Shown in pieces: positions 59,730 to 64,000 of a stretch of 64,000 bases of DNA. Every line of letters begins with the position of its first letter. Position 1 is the stretch's first letter. Both the position numbers and the translations under genes were made by a program. The stretch lies in assembly GCA_043822105.1 (NCBI GenBank), contig JBDRCD010000010.1:86685-150684 (forward strand), written 5' to 3'. This DNA is from an archaeon. Lineage in GTDB: Archaea > Nanobdellota > Nanobdellia > Woesearchaeales > GCA-2686295. The notes under the pieces are model-generated. The model was not told where the DNA came from, made no database searches, and saw only the letters and a list, made by a program, of their open reading frames with translations.

Positions 59730-60917
59730 ATGAATTTTCATATTAATGGAAAAAATGTGAAAATAATTTTTAATTATAATAATTATTCTAAAAGAAAGTA
59801 TAGAAATGACTTTAAAGATTTCTTAGATTATCACACAAAAAGGGAGGAAAAAGACCCTGAGCAAGTTAGACAATTTGATTTAAAAAGAATTTTTTATAAA
59901 GAATTTCAAACAATTCCTTATAAAGGACTTGCAGCATATTTATCTGAAAGGTATAGCTATGAATTTTTCATGAAAACTGCTAATTATTTTTTTATTAAAA
60001 TACTTGAAAAAGTACTAAATGATTATCCAAAGATAATTACTTCTGAGGAATTTGAAATTCAAGTTCAAGTGATAAGGATTGTAAGAAGAGAATATTATGG
60101 GGCTTATGATCCCGAACCATCTGATAAAGATCATGCGTATATTGAGTTTAATGCTGTATGGGTTCTTAATAACATAGTTATGCCTTGGGCACTTTATAAG
60201 AAGATAAATTATCAACTGATATATAAATTTCTAGTGCATGAACTTTATCATCATGTTGATAATATAGCGGAAGCTTTTATTTATGAAGACAAACTAGAAG
60301 ATAAATTAAAATTGAAATCTAAAAAGATATCTAATTATGGAGTTTTATTCCTTTTTTCTGTATTATTTGAGTTGAGGGCAGAGGGTTTTGCAGAATTCGC
60401 TTCAAGAAATTCAAATCGTTTTGAAATAAACAAGAATAAAATATTAGAATTTAAAAAAAATCTTTGGATCCTTGTTACTAAAAGAAAAAAAGCAGATGCA
60501 GAATATTTCTTTAATAAAAAATTATCAACAGAATCCTATGCAACTTATTACTCTGGAAATCTTATGTGTTTTATAATAGCATTATTCTTTTGTAAAAATG
60601 TTACGAACCAACCTAAAATTATATTTGATGGAAAAGAATTTCCCATAATTGATTTAAATAGACTAATTGACACAAAAAAAACTGTTTCGATAATGGGAAT
60701 GCCTAGGGAGATTTATCAAAAAACATTATCATATGTGAACTCGATTGGGCCTGCGGAATTCTTAAATATGTATAATCATGCATGTGATCATTTAGAAATA
60801 TCATATGACAATCGAGTTTTATGGTGGAAAGAATTTATTAAGTTAAAAAAGAAGACAACAGAAATTTATGAAGCCGATAGATTAAAAAAAGTCATCAAAA
60901 AAGGATATACTATATAA
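59730..60917 (+). CDS. Hypothetical HEXXH metalloprotease-like protein
   Basis: LVHELYH...AEGFAEF (gluzincin-like); very AT-rich. Confidence 0.65.
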   Translation: MNFHINGKNVKIIFNYNNYSKRKYRNDFKDFLDYHTKREEKDPEQVRQFDLKRIFYKEFQTIPYKGLAAYLSERYSYEFFMKTANYFFIKILEKVLNDYPKIITSEEFEIQVQVIRIVRREYYGAYDPEPSDKDHAYIEFNAVWVLNNIVMPWALYKKINYQLIYKFLVHELYHHVDNIAEAFIYEDKLEDKLKLKSKKISNYGVLFLFSVLFELRAEGFAEFASRNSNRFEINKNKILEFKKNLWILVTKRKKADAEYFFNKKLSTESYATYYSGNLMCFIIALFFCKNVTNQPKIIFDGKEFPIIDLNRLIDTKKTVSIMGMPREIYQKTLSYVNSIGPAEFLNMYNHACDHLEISYDNRVLWWKEFIKLKKKTTEIYEADRLKKVIKKGYTI

Positions 60918-60965
60918 CCTCAAAATTAAATGATGCTGTACTTCTTATAATTTATTTTTTTACCC

Positions 60966-61142
60966 TTATTTTTTAGAATAAATTATGTATTCAATAATTA
61001 ATGTGAACAACGGAAACAGAATACTCAAAACAATAGAAGTATCTTTTCCTATATTAGTTGTTCCTAAAATGAAGAATAGAATTAATCCTAGAGTGATTGC
61101 TTGTAAGATTCCAAAAATGTAAAAAATGTTATTATTTTGCAT
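60966..61142 (-). CDS. Small two-TM protein (58 aa; below the ORF-track cutoff)
   Basis: Manual translation MQNNNIFYIFGILQAITLGLILFFILGTT...FTLIIEYIIYSKK. Confidence 0.55.
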   Translation of the reverse strand: MQNNNIFYIFGILQAITLGLILFFILGTTNIGKDTSIVLSILFPLFTLIIEYIIYSKK

Positions 61143-61195
61143 AATGTTAGATTAATTTCTTATGTATATAAAACTTTCGTCAGGGCAAAAATGAA

Positions 61196-61223
61196 ATTGA
61201 ACATAATTCCTGTTAGTTTCTTT
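61196..61223. repeat. dif/att-like site A
   Basis: ATTGAACATAA-TTCCTG-TTAGTTTCTTT. Confidence 0.75.
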
Positions 61224-61399
61224 GACCCTACAACGTGGGGTCAAATTTCGTCCGAAAAGTTCAGAAAACGGCCGTTCATCCACGGAGCGAATGCGACACA
61301 TAAATTTAAACAATGAAGGGCAAGGGTTATTCATTATTGTATCTAAATAGTAGTAACAAAATAGAAAGATTTATAAATCTATTATTATCTGCTATTGTT

Positions 61400-61957
61400 A
61401 TGTTAGATACTGGATTTCATTATATGAGCGAAAGAAGATGGAATGAATTAAATCATGATATAAATGATTCTAAAGTCATCAAACCTGGAAGAAGATTTGT
61501 GAGATTAAGAAGTATTGCAGATCCAGATATTCCTAAATTGCCAGATTGGGCACATGATGGTTATATTTTTGCATTTCCAGATAAAGAAGCACCAGAACCT
61601 TGGAAAGGATATGAACATTGGAAGGATGAATGGGACATTTTAACTGGAGATATTGGAGAAAAAATAGTGGGTGTAAGGTTTGAGATTCTTCCATCAGATG
61701 AGGCATATGTTGTAGATAGAGCACATCATGCAGATTTTCAATGGAAACACAATGGAGATAGACAAGATGCAATTAGAAAATATGCTTTATCAAGAGTTCC
61801 TGCAAGCGAATATGATGGAAGTTTTAGAATGCCAGAATTACTAATAAGAAATCCAATAGACTTAGAAAGATTAATACAACATAGTGCATTTACAAGAGAT
61901 ATAGTTAGAAATAATGGTGAATGGACTATCGAATATAAGCCCAGCCCTATAGACTAA
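61400..61957 (+). CDS. Hypothetical protein (cargo of module 1)
   Basis: ORF lies between sites A and B; start moved to ATG 61400. Confidence 0.65.
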   Translation: MLDTGFHYMSERRWNELNHDINDSKVIKPGRRFVRLRSIADPDIPKLPDWAHDGYIFAFPDKEAPEPWKGYEHWKDEWDILTGDIGEKIVGVRFEILPSDEAYVVDRAHHADFQWKHNGDRQDAIRKYALSRVPASEYDGSFRMPELLIRNPIDLERLIQHSAFTRDIVRNNGEWTIEYKPSPID

Positions 61958-61973
61958 TTAGGTCGTTTTCTGA

Positions 61974-62001
61974 ATTGAAACTAATCCTTGTTATATTCTT
62001 G
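61974..62001. repeat. dif/att-like site B
   Basis: ATTGAAACTAA-TCCTTG-TTATATTCTTG. Confidence 0.75.
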
Positions 62002-62089
62002 AGGCTTTTTTTTTAAGCCGAAACAAGAAACCGTAGGTTTCGCAGAGTAACGCCCAAGAGTTTGTAATTTTTTAACTCTAAAAGGCGTT

Positions 62090-62117
62090 ATTGAATATAA
62101 TCCTTGTTATATGAGGG
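62090..62117. repeat. dif/att-like site C
   Basis: ATTGAATATAA-TCCTTG-TTATATGAGGG. Confidence 0.75.
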
Positions 62118-62193
62118 TGAGCGAAGCGAAAGGCTACAAGCCGTCCCCGAGGATTTGCGAAACAAACCGCAGAGTTGAGAAAAGGCACTTAAA

Positions 62194-62421
62194 TTACTTA
62201 TTTTTTATTTCATATAATTTATTTCTTATAAATGAAAATCTGAATACACATAAGAAAAAAAACACAAATAAAAACCCTACCAAAACCAGCTTACTAATTA
62301 GAGTATTTCCAAATATTATTTCATTTATCTCGCTTGTAATTAATAATATACTTACAGTTATTCCTCCAATGAGTGAGAGATATAAATTCTTAGAATCTTC
62401 TGGGTCTAATGGCCATTTCAT
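62194..62421 (-). CDS. Small two-TM protein (cargo of module 3)
   Basis: ATGA overlap with the upstream lipoprotein gene. Confidence 0.6.
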   Translation of the reverse strand: MKWPLDPEDSKNLYLSLIGGITVSILLITSEINEIIFGNTLISKLVLVGFLFVFFFLCVFRFSFIRNKLYEIKNK

Positions 62422-62810
62422 TTTATTTGTAAACAATTAGATTTTATGAAATTACCTTCTTTATCAAATTCAACTGAATAACTAAGGTCTAATTTTTCTT
62501 TGATTGAACCATCCTGATTTAGAACAGTTTTATGTAATTTTGCACTATTTATTCCAGAAGAGTATCCACAGTAATAATGATCAGGAAATTCGCCTTGATT
62601 TGTACCCATTCTACATTTAGGAGTATTAAATTCAACTTTCCAATCAGCTATTTCTTTTGGCAATACTGCAAATGGAGATTGCATACTTGACCCTTCATTT
62701 AAAGTTGCATTTGTGATTGGACATTTAACATCATTGATTATACTAATGTCATTAACATTACATCCTGTTAGTAAAATCAAAAAAAAAATTAAAAGCATTA
62801 TTTTTTGCAT
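62418..62810 (-). CDS. Putative lipoprotein (cargo of module 3)
   Basis: LLTGC lipobox. Confidence 0.7.
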   Translation of the reverse strand: MQKIMLLIFFLILLTGCNVNDISIINDVKCPITNATLNEGSSMQSPFAVLPKEIADWKVEFNTPKCRMGTNQGEFPDHYYCGYSSGINSAKLHKTVLNQDGSIKEKLDLSYSVEFDKEGNFIKSNCLQIK

Positions 62811-62875
62811 AATTGTGATTTATAATGGATATTTAAATAATTATTGTTTTGTTAAGGCTTAAGTGCCTTTTCTCA

Positions 62876-62903
62876 ATTTCGTTTAACCCTTGTTATATTC
62901 TTG
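62876..62903. repeat. dif/att-like site D
   Basis: ATTTCGTTTAA-CCCTTG-TTATATTCTTG. Confidence 0.7.
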
Positions 62904-62992
62904 AGGCTTTTTTTTAAGCCGAAACAAGAAACCGTAGGTTTCGCAGAGTAACGCCATAAAAATTTCTAATTTTTAAATGAAATGTTGGCGTT

Positions 62993-63020
62993 ATTGAATA
63001 TAATTCCTGTTAGTTTCTTT
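62993..63020. repeat. dif/att-like site E
   Basis: ATTGAATATAA-TTCCTG-TTAGTTTCTTT. Confidence 0.75.
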
Positions 63021-63198
63021 GACCCTACAACGTGGGGTCAAATTTCGTCCGAAAAGTTTTTTCGGGGGCGTATTCCATCAAGCGAACACAGTGAGCCATC
63101 AAGAATAAACATCAAGGGGCAATTTTCAGTTCGTCGTTTCGTAGGGGGAAATTCCGAGTCCTATCGGACAGAGTGCTTTTTTCTGCGGAAAAAGAAAT

Positions 63199-64000
63199 TT
63201 ATAAAAATTCTTTCAAATATTTTCCTGTATAGCTTTTCTGGCATTTAATCAATTCTTCAGGAGTTCCTTCAAACAAGATTTCTCCACCCTTAGAACCTCC
63301 TTCAGGGCCTAAGTCTATAACCCAATCAGCATGTTTAACAACATCAAGGTTATGCTCAATTACAATTACAGTATTATCATTATCAACCAGATTTTTTATT
63401 ATTTTCATTAATTTGTCAATATCTGCCATATGCAAACCTGTTGTTGGCTCATCCATAACATATATATTTCCTTTTTTGTGTAGTTCAGATGCCAGTTTGA
63501 TTCTTTGGCATTCTCCACCAGACAATGTGCTTAATGGTTGTCCAAGTTCTAAATAATCCAGACCCACATCACATAAAATTTGTAGTTTTCTTTTAATTTC
63601 TTTATTCTCAAAAAAATCAACTAGCTCCTTAACAGTCAGGCTCAAAATATCAAAAATACTTTTTCCATTATACTTTAATGCTAAAACCTTTTCAGTATAT
63701 CTTTTTCCATTACATTCGTCACAAGTAACTTTGACTTCATCCATAAAACTCATTTCATAGCTTATTGTTCCGAGCCCCTTACATTTAGGACATGCTCCTT
63801 TTGAATTGAAACTAAACAGGGCAGGATTTGTGTTGGTTGCGTCAGCGAATTCTTTTCTTATTAAGTCGAAAACTCCTATATAAGTCGCTGGATTAGAACG
63901 GGAAGATTTTCCAACTGGAGATTGGTCTATAATAATTGCATCTTTATTCTCTTTTACAAAAATATCATTTATCAAACTACTTTTTCCTGAACCTGCAACT
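63199..64000 (-). CDS. UvrA-family ABC ATPase, C-terminal part (possibly UvrA2/DrrC-like)
   Basis: VAGSGKSSLI at the window edge, RSNPATY, CPKC...CDEC, LSGGECQR, DEPTTGLH and IEHN. Confidence 0.9.
   Translation of the reverse strand, partial: VAGSGKSSLINDIFVKENKDAIIIDQSPVGKSSRSNPATYIGVFDLIRKEFADATNTNPALFSFNSKGACPKCKGLGTISYEMSFMDEVKVTCDECNGKRYTEKVLALKYNGKSIFDILSLTVKELVDFFENKEIKRKLQILCDVGLDYLELGQPLSTLSGGECQRIKLASELHKKGNIYVMDEPTTGLHMADIDKLMKIIKNLVDNDNTVIVIEHNLDVVKHADWVIDLGPEGGSKGGEILFEGTPEELIKCQKSYTGKYLKEFL

Follow-up and report, generated by a model that had tools for sequence, protein, structure and literature searches.

Cassette-specific inverted repeats in a putative array of gene cassettes joined at dif-like sites in an archaeon of the Woesearchaeales

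We performed a detailed inspection of an array of repeated modules located at the end of a 64,000-nt stretch of archaeal DNA (the window; contig JBDRCD010000010.1, positions 86,685 to 150,684, of assembly GCA_043822105.1). The array comprises five modules (M1-M5) placed head to tail between six junctions, and extends from position 61196 to approximately 65614 (window-equivalent), i.e. past the end of the window. Three of the modules carry cargo genes (M1, M3 and M5), while two are gene-less (M2 and M4). A gene encoding a Xer-like tyrosine recombinase is located just beyond the last junction. The features of this region are as follows.

61196..61223 (+): junction 1, the distal end of the array, with the left arm ATTGAACATAA, the spacer TTCCTG and the right arm of M1 TTAGTTTCTTT; its 11-6-11 layout resembles the dif oligonucleotide of Pyrococcus abyssi, and the sequence to its left has no inverted repeat (IR) partner in the window
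61213..61259 (+): M1 leader, with the hairpin TTTGACCC/GGGTCAAA (61221-61228 / 61238-61245), the hairpin TTTCG-TC-CGAAA and a terminal ..AAG; it is 98% identical to the M5 leader and is conserved in relatives
61260..61273 (+): M1 inner IR, 5′ arm; 13 of 14 positions pair, with one G.T
61313..61957 (+): M1 cargo ORF of 214 aa, with no Pfam family and no relatives found
61961..61974 (+): M1 inner IR, 3′ arm, whose last base is the A of the next ATTG
61974..62001 (+): junction 2, ATTGAAACTAA / TCCTTG / TTATATTCTTG; the left arm is the complement of the right arm of M1
61991..62100 (+): M2, a gene-less module with an arm helix, two leader hairpins (including CCGTAGG at 62031-62037) and the inner stem-loop 62048-62054 / 62084-62090 (DNA fold z -3.65)
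62090..62117 (+): junction 3, ATTGAATATAA / TCCTTG / TTATATGAGGG
62175..62192 (+): M3 inner IR, 5′ arm (18 nt); the M3 leader at 62107-62174 holds GCGAAGC at 62121-62127
62197..62810 (-): M3 cargo, two minus-strand ORFs of 130 aa (weak lipoprotein-like signal) and 80 aa
62859..62876 (+): M3 inner IR, 3′ arm, a perfect partner of the 5′ arm
62876..62903 (+): junction 4, with a degenerate left arm, ATTTCGTTTAA / CCCTTG / TTATATTCTTG
62893..63003 (+): M4, a gene-less module 87% like M2, with the inner stem 62949-62956 / 62986-62993 (DNA fold z -3.97)
62993..63020 (+): junction 5, ATTGAATATAA / TTCCTG / TTAGTTTCTTT
63010..63165 (+): M5 5′ frame, with a leader, a degenerate first IR tier from 63057, a conserved region designated the K-domain (63069-63127), a second tier GGGGCAATTTTC (63116-63127) and a third tier (63144-63156)
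63199..64000 (-): M5 cargo, a uvrA-like gene of 751 aa that runs past the end of the window to window-equivalent 65454, followed by the M5 3′ frame and the last junction, ATTGAGTTTAA / CAACAT / ATATGCGCATT, at window-equivalent 65614
65829..66686 (+, window-equivalent): gene encoding the 285-aa Xer-like recombinase

An earlier note, based on the sequence alone, had claimed that each module carries an inner IR whose 3′ partner abuts the terminal arm, and this observation is confirmed. All four IRs were found at the positions given in the note (M1, M2, M3 and M4), including the perfect 18-bp repeat of M3 (18 of 18), and in M1 the single exception to pairing is a G.T on the + strand. The leader hairpins described there (one of them GAAACC-GTA-GGTTTC) are also present. 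Each 3′ IR arm ends on the A of the ATTG of the next junction, and each 5′ arm starts right after an ..RAG motif.

In order to determine whether this arrangement exceeds chance, modules were called automatically between 147 junctions identified in the window and in 44 loci of relatives. Of the resulting 96 modules, 43 contain an IR (score ≥10) anchored on the next junction, compared with 3 of 1440 controls in which the 3′ ends were swapped between modules. The offset to the ATTG is 0 in 40 of these 43 modules, the IR is preceded by GAG or AAG in 37 of 43, and the stem length is 12-20 nt, with a mode of 14. For the first 77 modules, a perfect IR of ≥12 nt was found in 31 of 77, against 0.02% of swapped pairs. 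The other 53 of the 96 modules show no IR at the threshold used; these include false or missed junction calls and modules with short IRs such as M2 and M4 (7-8 bp). A tally of mismatch types within the IRs gave 4 G.T and 0 others under a strict rule, but mixed types under a lax rule, and is too small or too noisy to use.

The sequences of the IRs are unrelated between modules, while their pairing is kept. For nine gene-less modules of the M2/M4 type, 98.6% of the cells are paired, compared with 88.7% in shuffles (0 of 500 shuffles reach this value), and 7 pairs change on both sides, against 2.6 in shuffles (0 of 500). Slid controls give 31-45% paired. In addition, one conserved frame (IR, K-domain and second stem) encloses unrelated cargo in six genomes, and the homologous frames carry compensatory changes.

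The note had predicted that M5 should end, downstream of the window, with a complement of its IR followed by a terminal arm. An initial search for an exact or near-exact complement of the M5 IR found nothing downstream. However, a homology-guided inspection and a duplex test revealed an imperfect, multi-tier partner outside the window, and thus the prediction holds in imperfect form.

The terminal arms of the note are the two halves of 11-6-11 sites (an 11-bp arm, a 6-bp spacer and an 11-bp arm). The junctions read ATTGnnnnTAA-6-TTAnnnnC.., and their left arm matches the tested dif site of P. abyssi (ATTGGATATAA TCGGCC TTATATCTAAA; PMC2958812) at 10 of 11 positions (compare the junction at 62090). 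The pattern occurs in 56 of 301 genomes of the order, with 93 matches (one of them in an unpublished genome, G216) against 15 for the reversed-pattern control. The arms obey a cassette logic: the 5′ and 3′ arms of the same module are perfect complements in 31 of 77 modules, compared with 7 of 77 for arms at the same junction and 5.3% for random pairs. Spacers differ between the junctions of one array and look array-specific. In a comparison of whether the spacer travels with the left or the right side, which would name the exchanged strand, the counts were 5 of 24 against 0 of 5.

The 285-aa recombinase gene is intact and lies about 215 bp past the last junction. Its product scores 201.5 bits on the XerA model (NF040815, cut-off 220) and 187.6 bits on the IntI model (TIGR02249, cut-off 265), the latter in two stretches. 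It is about equally close to IntI4 (2a3v), which it also matches in two stretches, and to P. abyssi XerA (4a8e), which it matches in one. A canonical XerA (262.6 bits) is encoded on another contig of this genome, whereas in three other genomes (G264, G297 and G178) the array-linked gene is the only strong XerA-like hit. Homologs sharing 39-60% identity are located to the right of arrays, in the same orientation, in 7 of 26 loci searched; most of the other loci end at contig ends. The cumulative GC skew of the contig peaks at the array, as expected for a terminus or dif location, although this turn rests on only the last roughly 10 kb of the contig and only hints at a terminus location.

No relatives were found for the M1 protein among the genome contigs searched, or for the 130-aa protein of M3 among the metagenome contigs searched. 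With the exception of the uvrA-like gene, the genes flanking this array were not found next to arrays in the retrieved loci of relatives. The longest cargo ORF is on the minus strand in 20 modules and on the plus strand in 8, with no ORF in 15. Cargo ORFs therefore lie mostly antisense to the recombinase strand, which gives the integron layout when the locus is flipped.

Folding of the circle-junction constructs, in which the two ends of a module are joined as in an excised circle, revealed that the + strand is the more stable one in 41 of 43 cases. There are 140 G.U pairs of 1679 on the + strand, against 49 of 1543 on the - strand. This asymmetry is partly an effect of composition, since shuffled + strands already fold better (-22.3 against -18.9 kcal/mol), but after shuffle correction the + strand still wins in 28 of 43 cases (p 0.007). 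With DNA parameters, M2 and M4 of the window fold equally well on both strands. The mini-hairpin motif x-C-GNA-G-x′ occurs 90 times on the + strand of 95 leaders, compared with 9 times on the reverse strand and 11.0 +/- 3.1 times in dinucleotide shuffles, i.e. a strand-specific excess of 8-fold. Such motifs are extraordinarily stable as DNA and much less so as RNA, and they occur at priming sites of single-stranded phage DNA (PMC13037366). Strand asymmetry and these motifs, although only indirect hints, favor folded single-stranded DNA over RNA.

A role at the RNA level is nevertheless conceivable. In this view, the array would be transcribed and the RNA of each module closed by the arm-plus-IR helix, which would serve processing at the single-stranded spacers, protection of cassette transcripts, or insulation and termination between cassettes, while the dif-like sites would serve only for DNA movement. 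The + strand carries the G.U-compatible pairs, including an invariant G.U next to the IR, and is the sense strand of the downstream recombinase gene. Moreover, long-range inverted repeats that flank genes are processed in archaeal rRNA operons. On the other hand, the folding strand is antisense to most cargo ORFs, and the genes of M3 have room for their own promoter inside the IR, so their mRNA would not hold both arms. GNA triloop mini-hairpins are DNA-typical and weak as RNA. A scan of positions 60800-63400 against Rfam at E ≤10 gave only sub-threshold chance hits, and no tRNAs were found in the window; split-tRNA, ribozyme, CRISPR and omega-RNA readings were therefore abandoned. A bulge-helix-bulge intron or processing stem was rejected, because the 3′ strand of the helix is continuous. 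We consider the RNA explanation unlikely.

Even less likely is a role in double-stranded DNA, in which the IR arms and leader would act as accessory sequences (analogous to the flanks reported around Thermococcales dif, or to the cer/psi accessory arms), bound or bridged by proteins or extruded as a cruciform, to control Xer recombination. The equal folding of both strands of M2 and M4 with DNA parameters is compatible with this. However, the IR sequences are unrelated between cassettes, so no sequence-specific protein could read them. The arms lie 300-4000 bp apart when integrated and 70-100 bp apart in the circle, which is poor geometry for cruciform extrusion, and the strong strand specificity of the mini-hairpins is not predicted by a duplex role.

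It is also possible, though improbable, that the IR is a by-product or marker of how cassettes are made, with no present role in recombination; for example, genes may be loaded into the loop of a pre-existing stem-loop module such as M2/M4, or the two halves of a standard frame may be joined to new DNA. The gene-less modules indeed consist of arms, leader and a stem-loop, and the frame holding six unrelated cargoes resembles species-specific attC families attached to unrelated genes. In contrast, most IRs are private in sequence and so are not copies of one founder stem. The maintenance of pairing by compensatory change and the exact zero offset to the left arm argue for ongoing selection on the helix. 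A simple attL/attR duplication of a single integrated element, suggested by a 66-nt repeat, was rejected, because each junction has its own arms and there are five modules.

The explanation that we consider somewhat more probable than not is that the region is an integron-like array of five gene cassettes, joined at Xer/dif-type core sites and placed next to a Xer-like tyrosine recombinase gene. Recombination in the spacer would move whole cassettes. A cassette therefore carries (i) the right half-site, a hairpin-rich leader and the 5′ IR arm at one end, and (ii) the 3′ IR arm plus the left half-site at the other. In this view, the inner IR is the basal clamp stem of the cassette's own recombination element. 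On one strand (here the + strand, antisense to most cargo genes) it would continue the helix formed by the two half-site arms of the cassette and, together with an A-T and an invariant G.T pair, give a continuous helix of roughly 26-28 bp, from which the leader hairpins branch off as a three- or four-way junction. In the integrated state this helix would enclose the cargo, while in an excised circle it would enclose only the crossover site plus leader, about 90-120 nt. The mini-hairpin leader may have an added role as an SSB-resistant or priming signal.

The anatomy of the modules, the covariation, the strand asymmetry, the dif-like sites and the linkage of the recombinase gene are established by this analysis. 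It is an inference that the recombinase acts at these sites, that the structure forms in single-stranded DNA (a lagging-strand template or an excised single strand), and that it promotes or directs recombination as the folded bottom strand of an integron attC does. Double-stranded Xer recombination between directly repeated sites would need no IR. Furthermore, in the predicted fold the two arms pair with each other, which yields a half-site hairpin and not a full two-arm site, so it is not evident how a tyrosine recombinase would use it. No sequencing run contained more than 13% of the sampled words of the stretch, and no RNA run was among those containing them; contigs from these runs cover mainly the leaders and K-domain and run on unlike at the start of the IR, and the absence of trustworthy joints among them is no evidence on expression or excision.

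The interpretation given in the earlier note, that the substrate is a folded single-stranded DNA or RNA recognized by its structure, like an attC with a gene in its variable loop, is supported only in part. Conservation of pairing rather than of sequence is borne out, and a folded single strand, more likely of DNA, is indicated. However, the note did not recognize that its terminal arms form a Xer/dif-type site that ordinary double-stranded recombination could also use, or that a Xer-like recombinase gene lies beside the array. Its placement of the cargo in a loop describes only the integrated state, since in an excised circle the same IR would close the site plus leader and the cargo would lie outside. 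Recognition of the structure by the enzyme remains conjectural.

A bolder possibility, which we regard as tentative and rather unlikely, is that DPANN archaea carry a previously undescribed cassette-capture system, an analogue or evolutionary forerunner of integrons, that still uses dif-type sites and a XerA-type enzyme. Its cassettes would recombine as folded single-stranded DNA, with the two ends of each forming an arm-plus-clamp helix and the mini-hairpin-rich leader a four-way junction, and the enzyme would read the structure rather than the sequence. This would show how attC-type folded substrates could have arisen from dif, and would tie gene capture to the chromosome terminus.

Integrons are the textbook gene-capture machines, yet the origin of attC sites, and of IntI from Xer-like ancestors, is unresolved. 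The system described here combines dif-type sites and a Xer-type enzyme with cassette-private, pairing-conserved stems. It gives a concrete intermediate to test, and its strict geometry (an IR abutting the half-site and DNA-type mini-hairpins on one strand only) makes clear predictions for recombination in vitro. It also suggests that the small, host-dependent DPANN archaea trade accessory genes through a dedicated platform at or near the chromosome-resolution site.

The layout is related to several known systems, although our literature searches on archaeal XerA and dif sites, Xer/dif in DPANN, archaeal integrons and integron-like cassettes, and dif-like cassettes in Patescibacteria found no description of it. 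With integrons (IntI, attI and attC gene cassettes), including those reported in archaeal MAGs (Ghaly et al. 2022, PMC9668308), it shares an array of small, mostly orphan or gene-less cassettes beside a tyrosine recombinase gene, from which the cargo mostly points away. Cassette-specific inverted repeats keep their pairing but not their sequence, the folding strand appears to be antisense to the cargo, and one repeat family is attached to unrelated genes. It cannot be excluded that some of the archaeal attC hits of that study lie in arrays like this one. The recombinase, however, lacks the IntI-specific insertion and scores below the IntI cut-off. Judged from the sequence only, the junctions are not attC sites: they are 11-6-11 dif-like sites with TAA/TTA inner triplets instead of R″/L″..L′/R′ with AAC/GTT. 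The crossover lies in the middle of the folded element and not at its 3′ edge, so each integrated cassette carries about 60-90 nt of this element at one end and about 25 nt at the other.

In archaeal Xer/dif chromosome-dimer resolution (XerA; Cortez et al. 2010, PMC2958812), the site is likewise a 28-bp 11-6-11 imperfect palindrome, a XerA-like enzyme is present (the array-linked one scoring below the XerA cut-off), the location is at a GC-skew turn, and inverted repeats are reported to flank dif. Here, there are six sites in direct repeat within 4.4 kb, with genes between them, instead of one site per chromosome, and this genome has a second, array-linked paralog besides a canonical XerA.

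IMEX elements and the pdif modules of Acinetobacter are also discrete modules bounded by dif-like sites and presumably moved by a Xer recombinase, which stack in tandem at one locus. The modules described here are archaeal, far smaller than phage or island IMEXs, and bounded by dif-like sites that are all in direct orientation, whereas pdif modules are bounded by sites in alternating orientation; their mobilization is inferred. Private clamp repeats and structured leaders have not been described for either.

Finally, the integration of folded single-stranded DNA of the CTX-phi type by XerCD (PMC3089051) involves a Xer-dependent element whose active site may be a folded single strand, as proposed here. 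Only one strand exchange would be needed, which would tolerate unlike spacers. No phage genes are present in the array. In CTX-phi, two inverted dif-like sequences pair to rebuild a full two-arm site, while in the folds predicted here the left arm pairs with the right arm of the same site, with the spacer as a loop, and a private stem closes the element.

Detailed inspection of the window revealed that five head-to-tail modules, M1 to M5, lie between position 61196 and its end, separated by a repeat of the form ATTGAAnnTAATyCyTGTTA. The junctions, the cargo and the other elements referred to below are as follows:
61196, junction repeat
61974, junction repeat
62090, junction repeat
62876, degenerate copy of the junction repeat
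62993, junction repeat
65614 (window-equivalent, just outside the window), sixth junction, ATTGAGTTTAA CAACAT ATATGCGCATT
61313-61957, cargo ORF of M1 (214 aa)
62418-62810, cargo ORF of M3 (130 aa, weak lipoprotein signal)
62031-62037 (+), mini-hairpin motif CCGTAGG in M2
62121-62127 (+), mini-hairpin motif GCGAAGC in M3
62932-62938 (+), mini-hairpin motif CCGTAGG in M4
62993 to about 63150, M5 unit
63069-63127, conserved domain of M5, designated the K-domain
63199-64000 and beyond, uvrA-like cargo gene of M5 (751 aa)
63805-63815, exact copy of ATTGAAACTAA within the uvrA-like coding sequence

The inner inverted repeats (IRs) that an earlier note had described in M1 to M4 were all found where it had placed them, and the observation is therefore confirmed. 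The two arms pair at 13 of 14 positions in M1 (the exception being a G.T), 7 of 7 in M2, 18 of 18 in M3 and 8 of 8 in M4. Each 3′ arm ends on the A of the next ATTG, while each 5′ arm starts directly after ..AAG or ..GAG. No tRNA is present in the window, and a scan of the region against Rfam gave no match above chance. The cargo proteins of M1 and M3 have no Pfam family, and one scan for each revealed no relatives; they are orphan genes, as is typical of cassette cargo.

Read in an 11-6-11 format, the sequences that the note had taken for terminal arms are the two halves of junctions such as ATTGAATATAA TCCTTG TTATAT... The dif oligonucleotide used by Cortez et al. to show XerA recombination in Pyrococcus abyssi is ATTGGATATAA TCGGCC TTATATCTAAA (PMC2958812). 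The left arm agrees with it at 10 of 11 positions, the spacer is of the same length, and the right arm starts alike. The only other candidate dif-like site that we saw in this genome, AATGGGCATAA CGGCCG TTATTGCAATC (contig C15, position 77916), shows 7 of 11 arm complementarity and has a spacer resembling that of P. abyssi dif. It might serve the canonical XerA described below. The exact ATTGAAACTAA (the left arm of M1) inside the uvrA-like gene has no IR before it, and we take it as a coincidence.

The genome (1.17 Mb, 19 contigs) contains six tyrosine recombinase genes. One of these, an intact Xer-like gene encoding a protein of 285 aa (contig C10, 152513-153370), starts about 215 bp beyond the sixth junction. 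Its product scores 201.5 bits on the XerA model (cut-off 220) and 187.6 bits on the IntI model (cut-off 265), and is about equally close to IntI4 (2a3v, matched in two stretches) and to P. abyssi XerA (4a8e, matched in one stretch). A canonical XerA (262.6 bits) is encoded on another contig (C11, 52204-53133).

A strict junction pattern occurs in 56 of 301 genomes sampled from the order (93 matches by our count, compared with 15 for the reversed-pattern control), and several genomes hold clusters of such sites. One of the matches is in the unpublished genome G216, which is not among the 44 loci retrieved for further analysis. Many arrays (e.g. those of the retrieved loci L045, L046, L047, L048, L057 and L058) run into contig ends; assemblies probably break in them, so that array sizes and their frequency in MAGs are underestimated. 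Homologs of the array-linked recombinase (39-60% identity) lie just to the right of the arrays, in the same orientation, in 7 of the 26 loci searched. In three of five genomes of relatives checked (G264, G297 and G178) this gene is the only strong XerA-like hit, whereas in the two others (G157 and G277), and in the genome studied here, a second, higher-scoring XerA is present elsewhere. This looks like a duplication on the way to a dedicated cassette recombinase, although the MAGs are incomplete. The cumulative GC skew of the 162-kb contig C10 rises for 145 kb and turns at the array (about 145-152 kb; window about 58300-65600), as expected for a replication terminus. This hints at a terminus or dif location, but rests on only the last roughly 10 kb of the contig.

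The right arm of a module (TTA plus 5 nt) is a perfect complement of the left arm at its own 3′ end in 31 of 77 modules, compared with 7 of 77 for arms at the same junction and 5.3% for random pairs. This is what is expected if each module once was a circle with one palindromic site that recombined, in the spacer, with a site in the array.

Among 96 automatically called modules, an IR anchored on the next junction scores ≥10 in 43, compared with 3 of 1440 when the 3′ ends were swapped among modules. The other 53 of 96 include false or missed junction calls and short IRs such as those of M2 and M4. In the first 77 modules, a perfect IR of ≥12 nt occurs in 31, compared with 0.02% of swapped pairs. 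The geometry of the 43 IRs is strict: the offset to ATTG is 0 in 40 of 43, the IR is preceded by GAG or AAG in 37 of 43, its first base is T in 40 of 43, the stem is 12-20 nt long (mode 14), and it starts a median of 73 nt after the junction start. The IR sequences are unrelated between modules. For nine gene-less modules of the M2/M4 type, RNAalifold predicts that the arm helix continues into an A-U pair, an invariant G.U pair and the IR. In this alignment 98.6% of cells pair, compared with 88.7% in shuffles (0 of 500 reached this value), and 7 pairs change on both sides, compared with 2.6 (0 of 500), while slid controls gave 31-45%. On the 3′ strand, therefore, the IR, the ATT and the left arm form one unbroken predicted helix of roughly 26-28 bp, while on the 5′ strand the leader branches out. 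It might be argued that the IR is merely a relic of cassette genesis, but this view is weakened by the compensatory maintenance of pairing and by the strict offset.

The M5 unit is conserved in 26 of 61 relatives. Its K-domain, comprised of three ATCAAG repeats around a hairpin with tandem G.A pairs, recurs just inside the 5′ IR arm of many modules. One frame, consisting of the IR TAATTTTTAGTGGC/GCCACTAAAAATTA, the K-domain and a second stem GGGGGACATTTC/GAAATGTCCCCC, encloses unrelated cargo in five other genomes (loci L020, L065, L080, L084 and L093): (i) 300 aa, (ii) 209 + 95 aa, (iii) 100 aa, (iv) three ORFs over 4.1 kb and (v) 167 aa. Both stems show compensatory variants, and the cargo proteins give no BLASTP hits to one another. 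In the genome studied here, the sixth to carry this reusable frame, it encloses the uvrA-like gene. Homologs of this short gene also lie next to the recombinase gene in G178 and near a K-domain in the relative G025 (L067:6568-6918; L042:929-1282), and it may therefore be a habitual neighbor of the locus rather than free cargo. In another relative, G243 (L068:3297-3620), a small ORF whose C-terminus may resemble a RelE/ParE-type toxin ends a few bases before a near-perfect palindromic dif-like site, which is followed by a leader and a K-domain.

The earlier note had predicted that M5 would end, downstream of the window, with a complement of its IR followed by a junction arm. We found that the M5 5′ region (63050-63165) pairs collinearly, in three tiers, with the 85 nt preceding the sixth junction. 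The predicted duplex energy is -44.0 kcal/mol, compared with -25.4 +/- 4.6 for shuffled partners (0 of 300 reached it) and -22.6 to -30.4 for the 3′ ends of other modules. The prediction thus holds in imperfect form, since the first tier is degenerate and the arm is ATTGAGTTTAA rather than ATTGAAACTAA.

In order to predict the structure of an excised circle, the 3′ end of each module was joined in silico to its 5′ start. The 43 resulting constructs are predicted to fold into three- or four-way junctions with the spacer as a hairpin loop. The + strand is more stable than its complement in 41 of 43 cases (mean -42.1 against -37.0 kcal/mol), and has 140 G.U pairs of 1679, compared with 49 of 1543 on the - strand. 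Part of this difference is due to composition; after subtraction of shuffles the + strand is still favored in 28 of 43 (p 0.007). Against a strong claim, M2 and M4 fold equally well on both strands when DNA parameters are used (z -3.65 to -4.70).

The leaders are packed with x-C-GNA-G-x' motifs on the + strand: 90 occur in 95 unique leaders (about 8-fold enrichment), compared with 9 on the reverse strand and 11.0 +/- 3.1 in dinucleotide shuffles. At least one is present in 64 of 95 leaders, and GCGNAGC occurs 32 times, compared with 0 for its reverse complement. According to a 2026 review, GCGNAGC and GCGNNAGC form extraordinarily stable DNA mini-hairpins (Tm about 76 C), the RNA version is far weaker (39 C for r(GCGAAAGC)), and such motifs sit at priming sites of single-stranded phage DNA and bind SSB poorly (PMC13037366). 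This raises the idea of an SSB-resistant or priming signal on single-stranded cassette DNA. Cargo ORFs lie mostly antisense to the folding strand (20 minus, 8 plus and 15 modules with none). Flipped over, the locus has the integron layout, in which the recombinase gene diverges from an array of cassettes and the folding strand is the "bottom" strand. An RNA-level role of the IR (processing, stability or insulation) is weakened by the antisense cargo and the DNA-type loops, while an accessory role in duplex DNA is weakened by the private IR sequences and the strand-specific motifs.

We read the inner IR as the basal clamp of a cassette-private, folded recombination element in a Xer/dif-based, integron-like cassette array. 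The anatomy, the covariation, the dif-like sites and the linked recombinase gene rest directly on our analysis, whereas recombination itself, the single-stranded state and any recognition of the structure are inferences; no public sequencing run contained enough of the locus to look for excision joints. This reading does not explain how a tyrosine recombinase would use a fold in which the two arms of one site pair with each other. Unlike spacers within arrays would fit a one-strand exchange, although our comparison did not assign the spacer to either side. The interpretation offered in the note, i.e. that a folded single-stranded DNA or RNA is recognized by its structure, like an attC with a gene in its variable loop, is partly supported.

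Literature searches, including PMC9668308, PMC8138268 and PMC2958812, revealed no description of this arrangement, although overlap with the archaeal "attC" lists of PMC9668308 cannot be excluded. The locus does not satisfy the integron criteria concerning IntI and attC, nor does it conform to the one-site rule of Xer/dif. It differs from pdif modules, IMEXs and CTX-phi in orientation, size and fold. In our reading, it works most like an integron.
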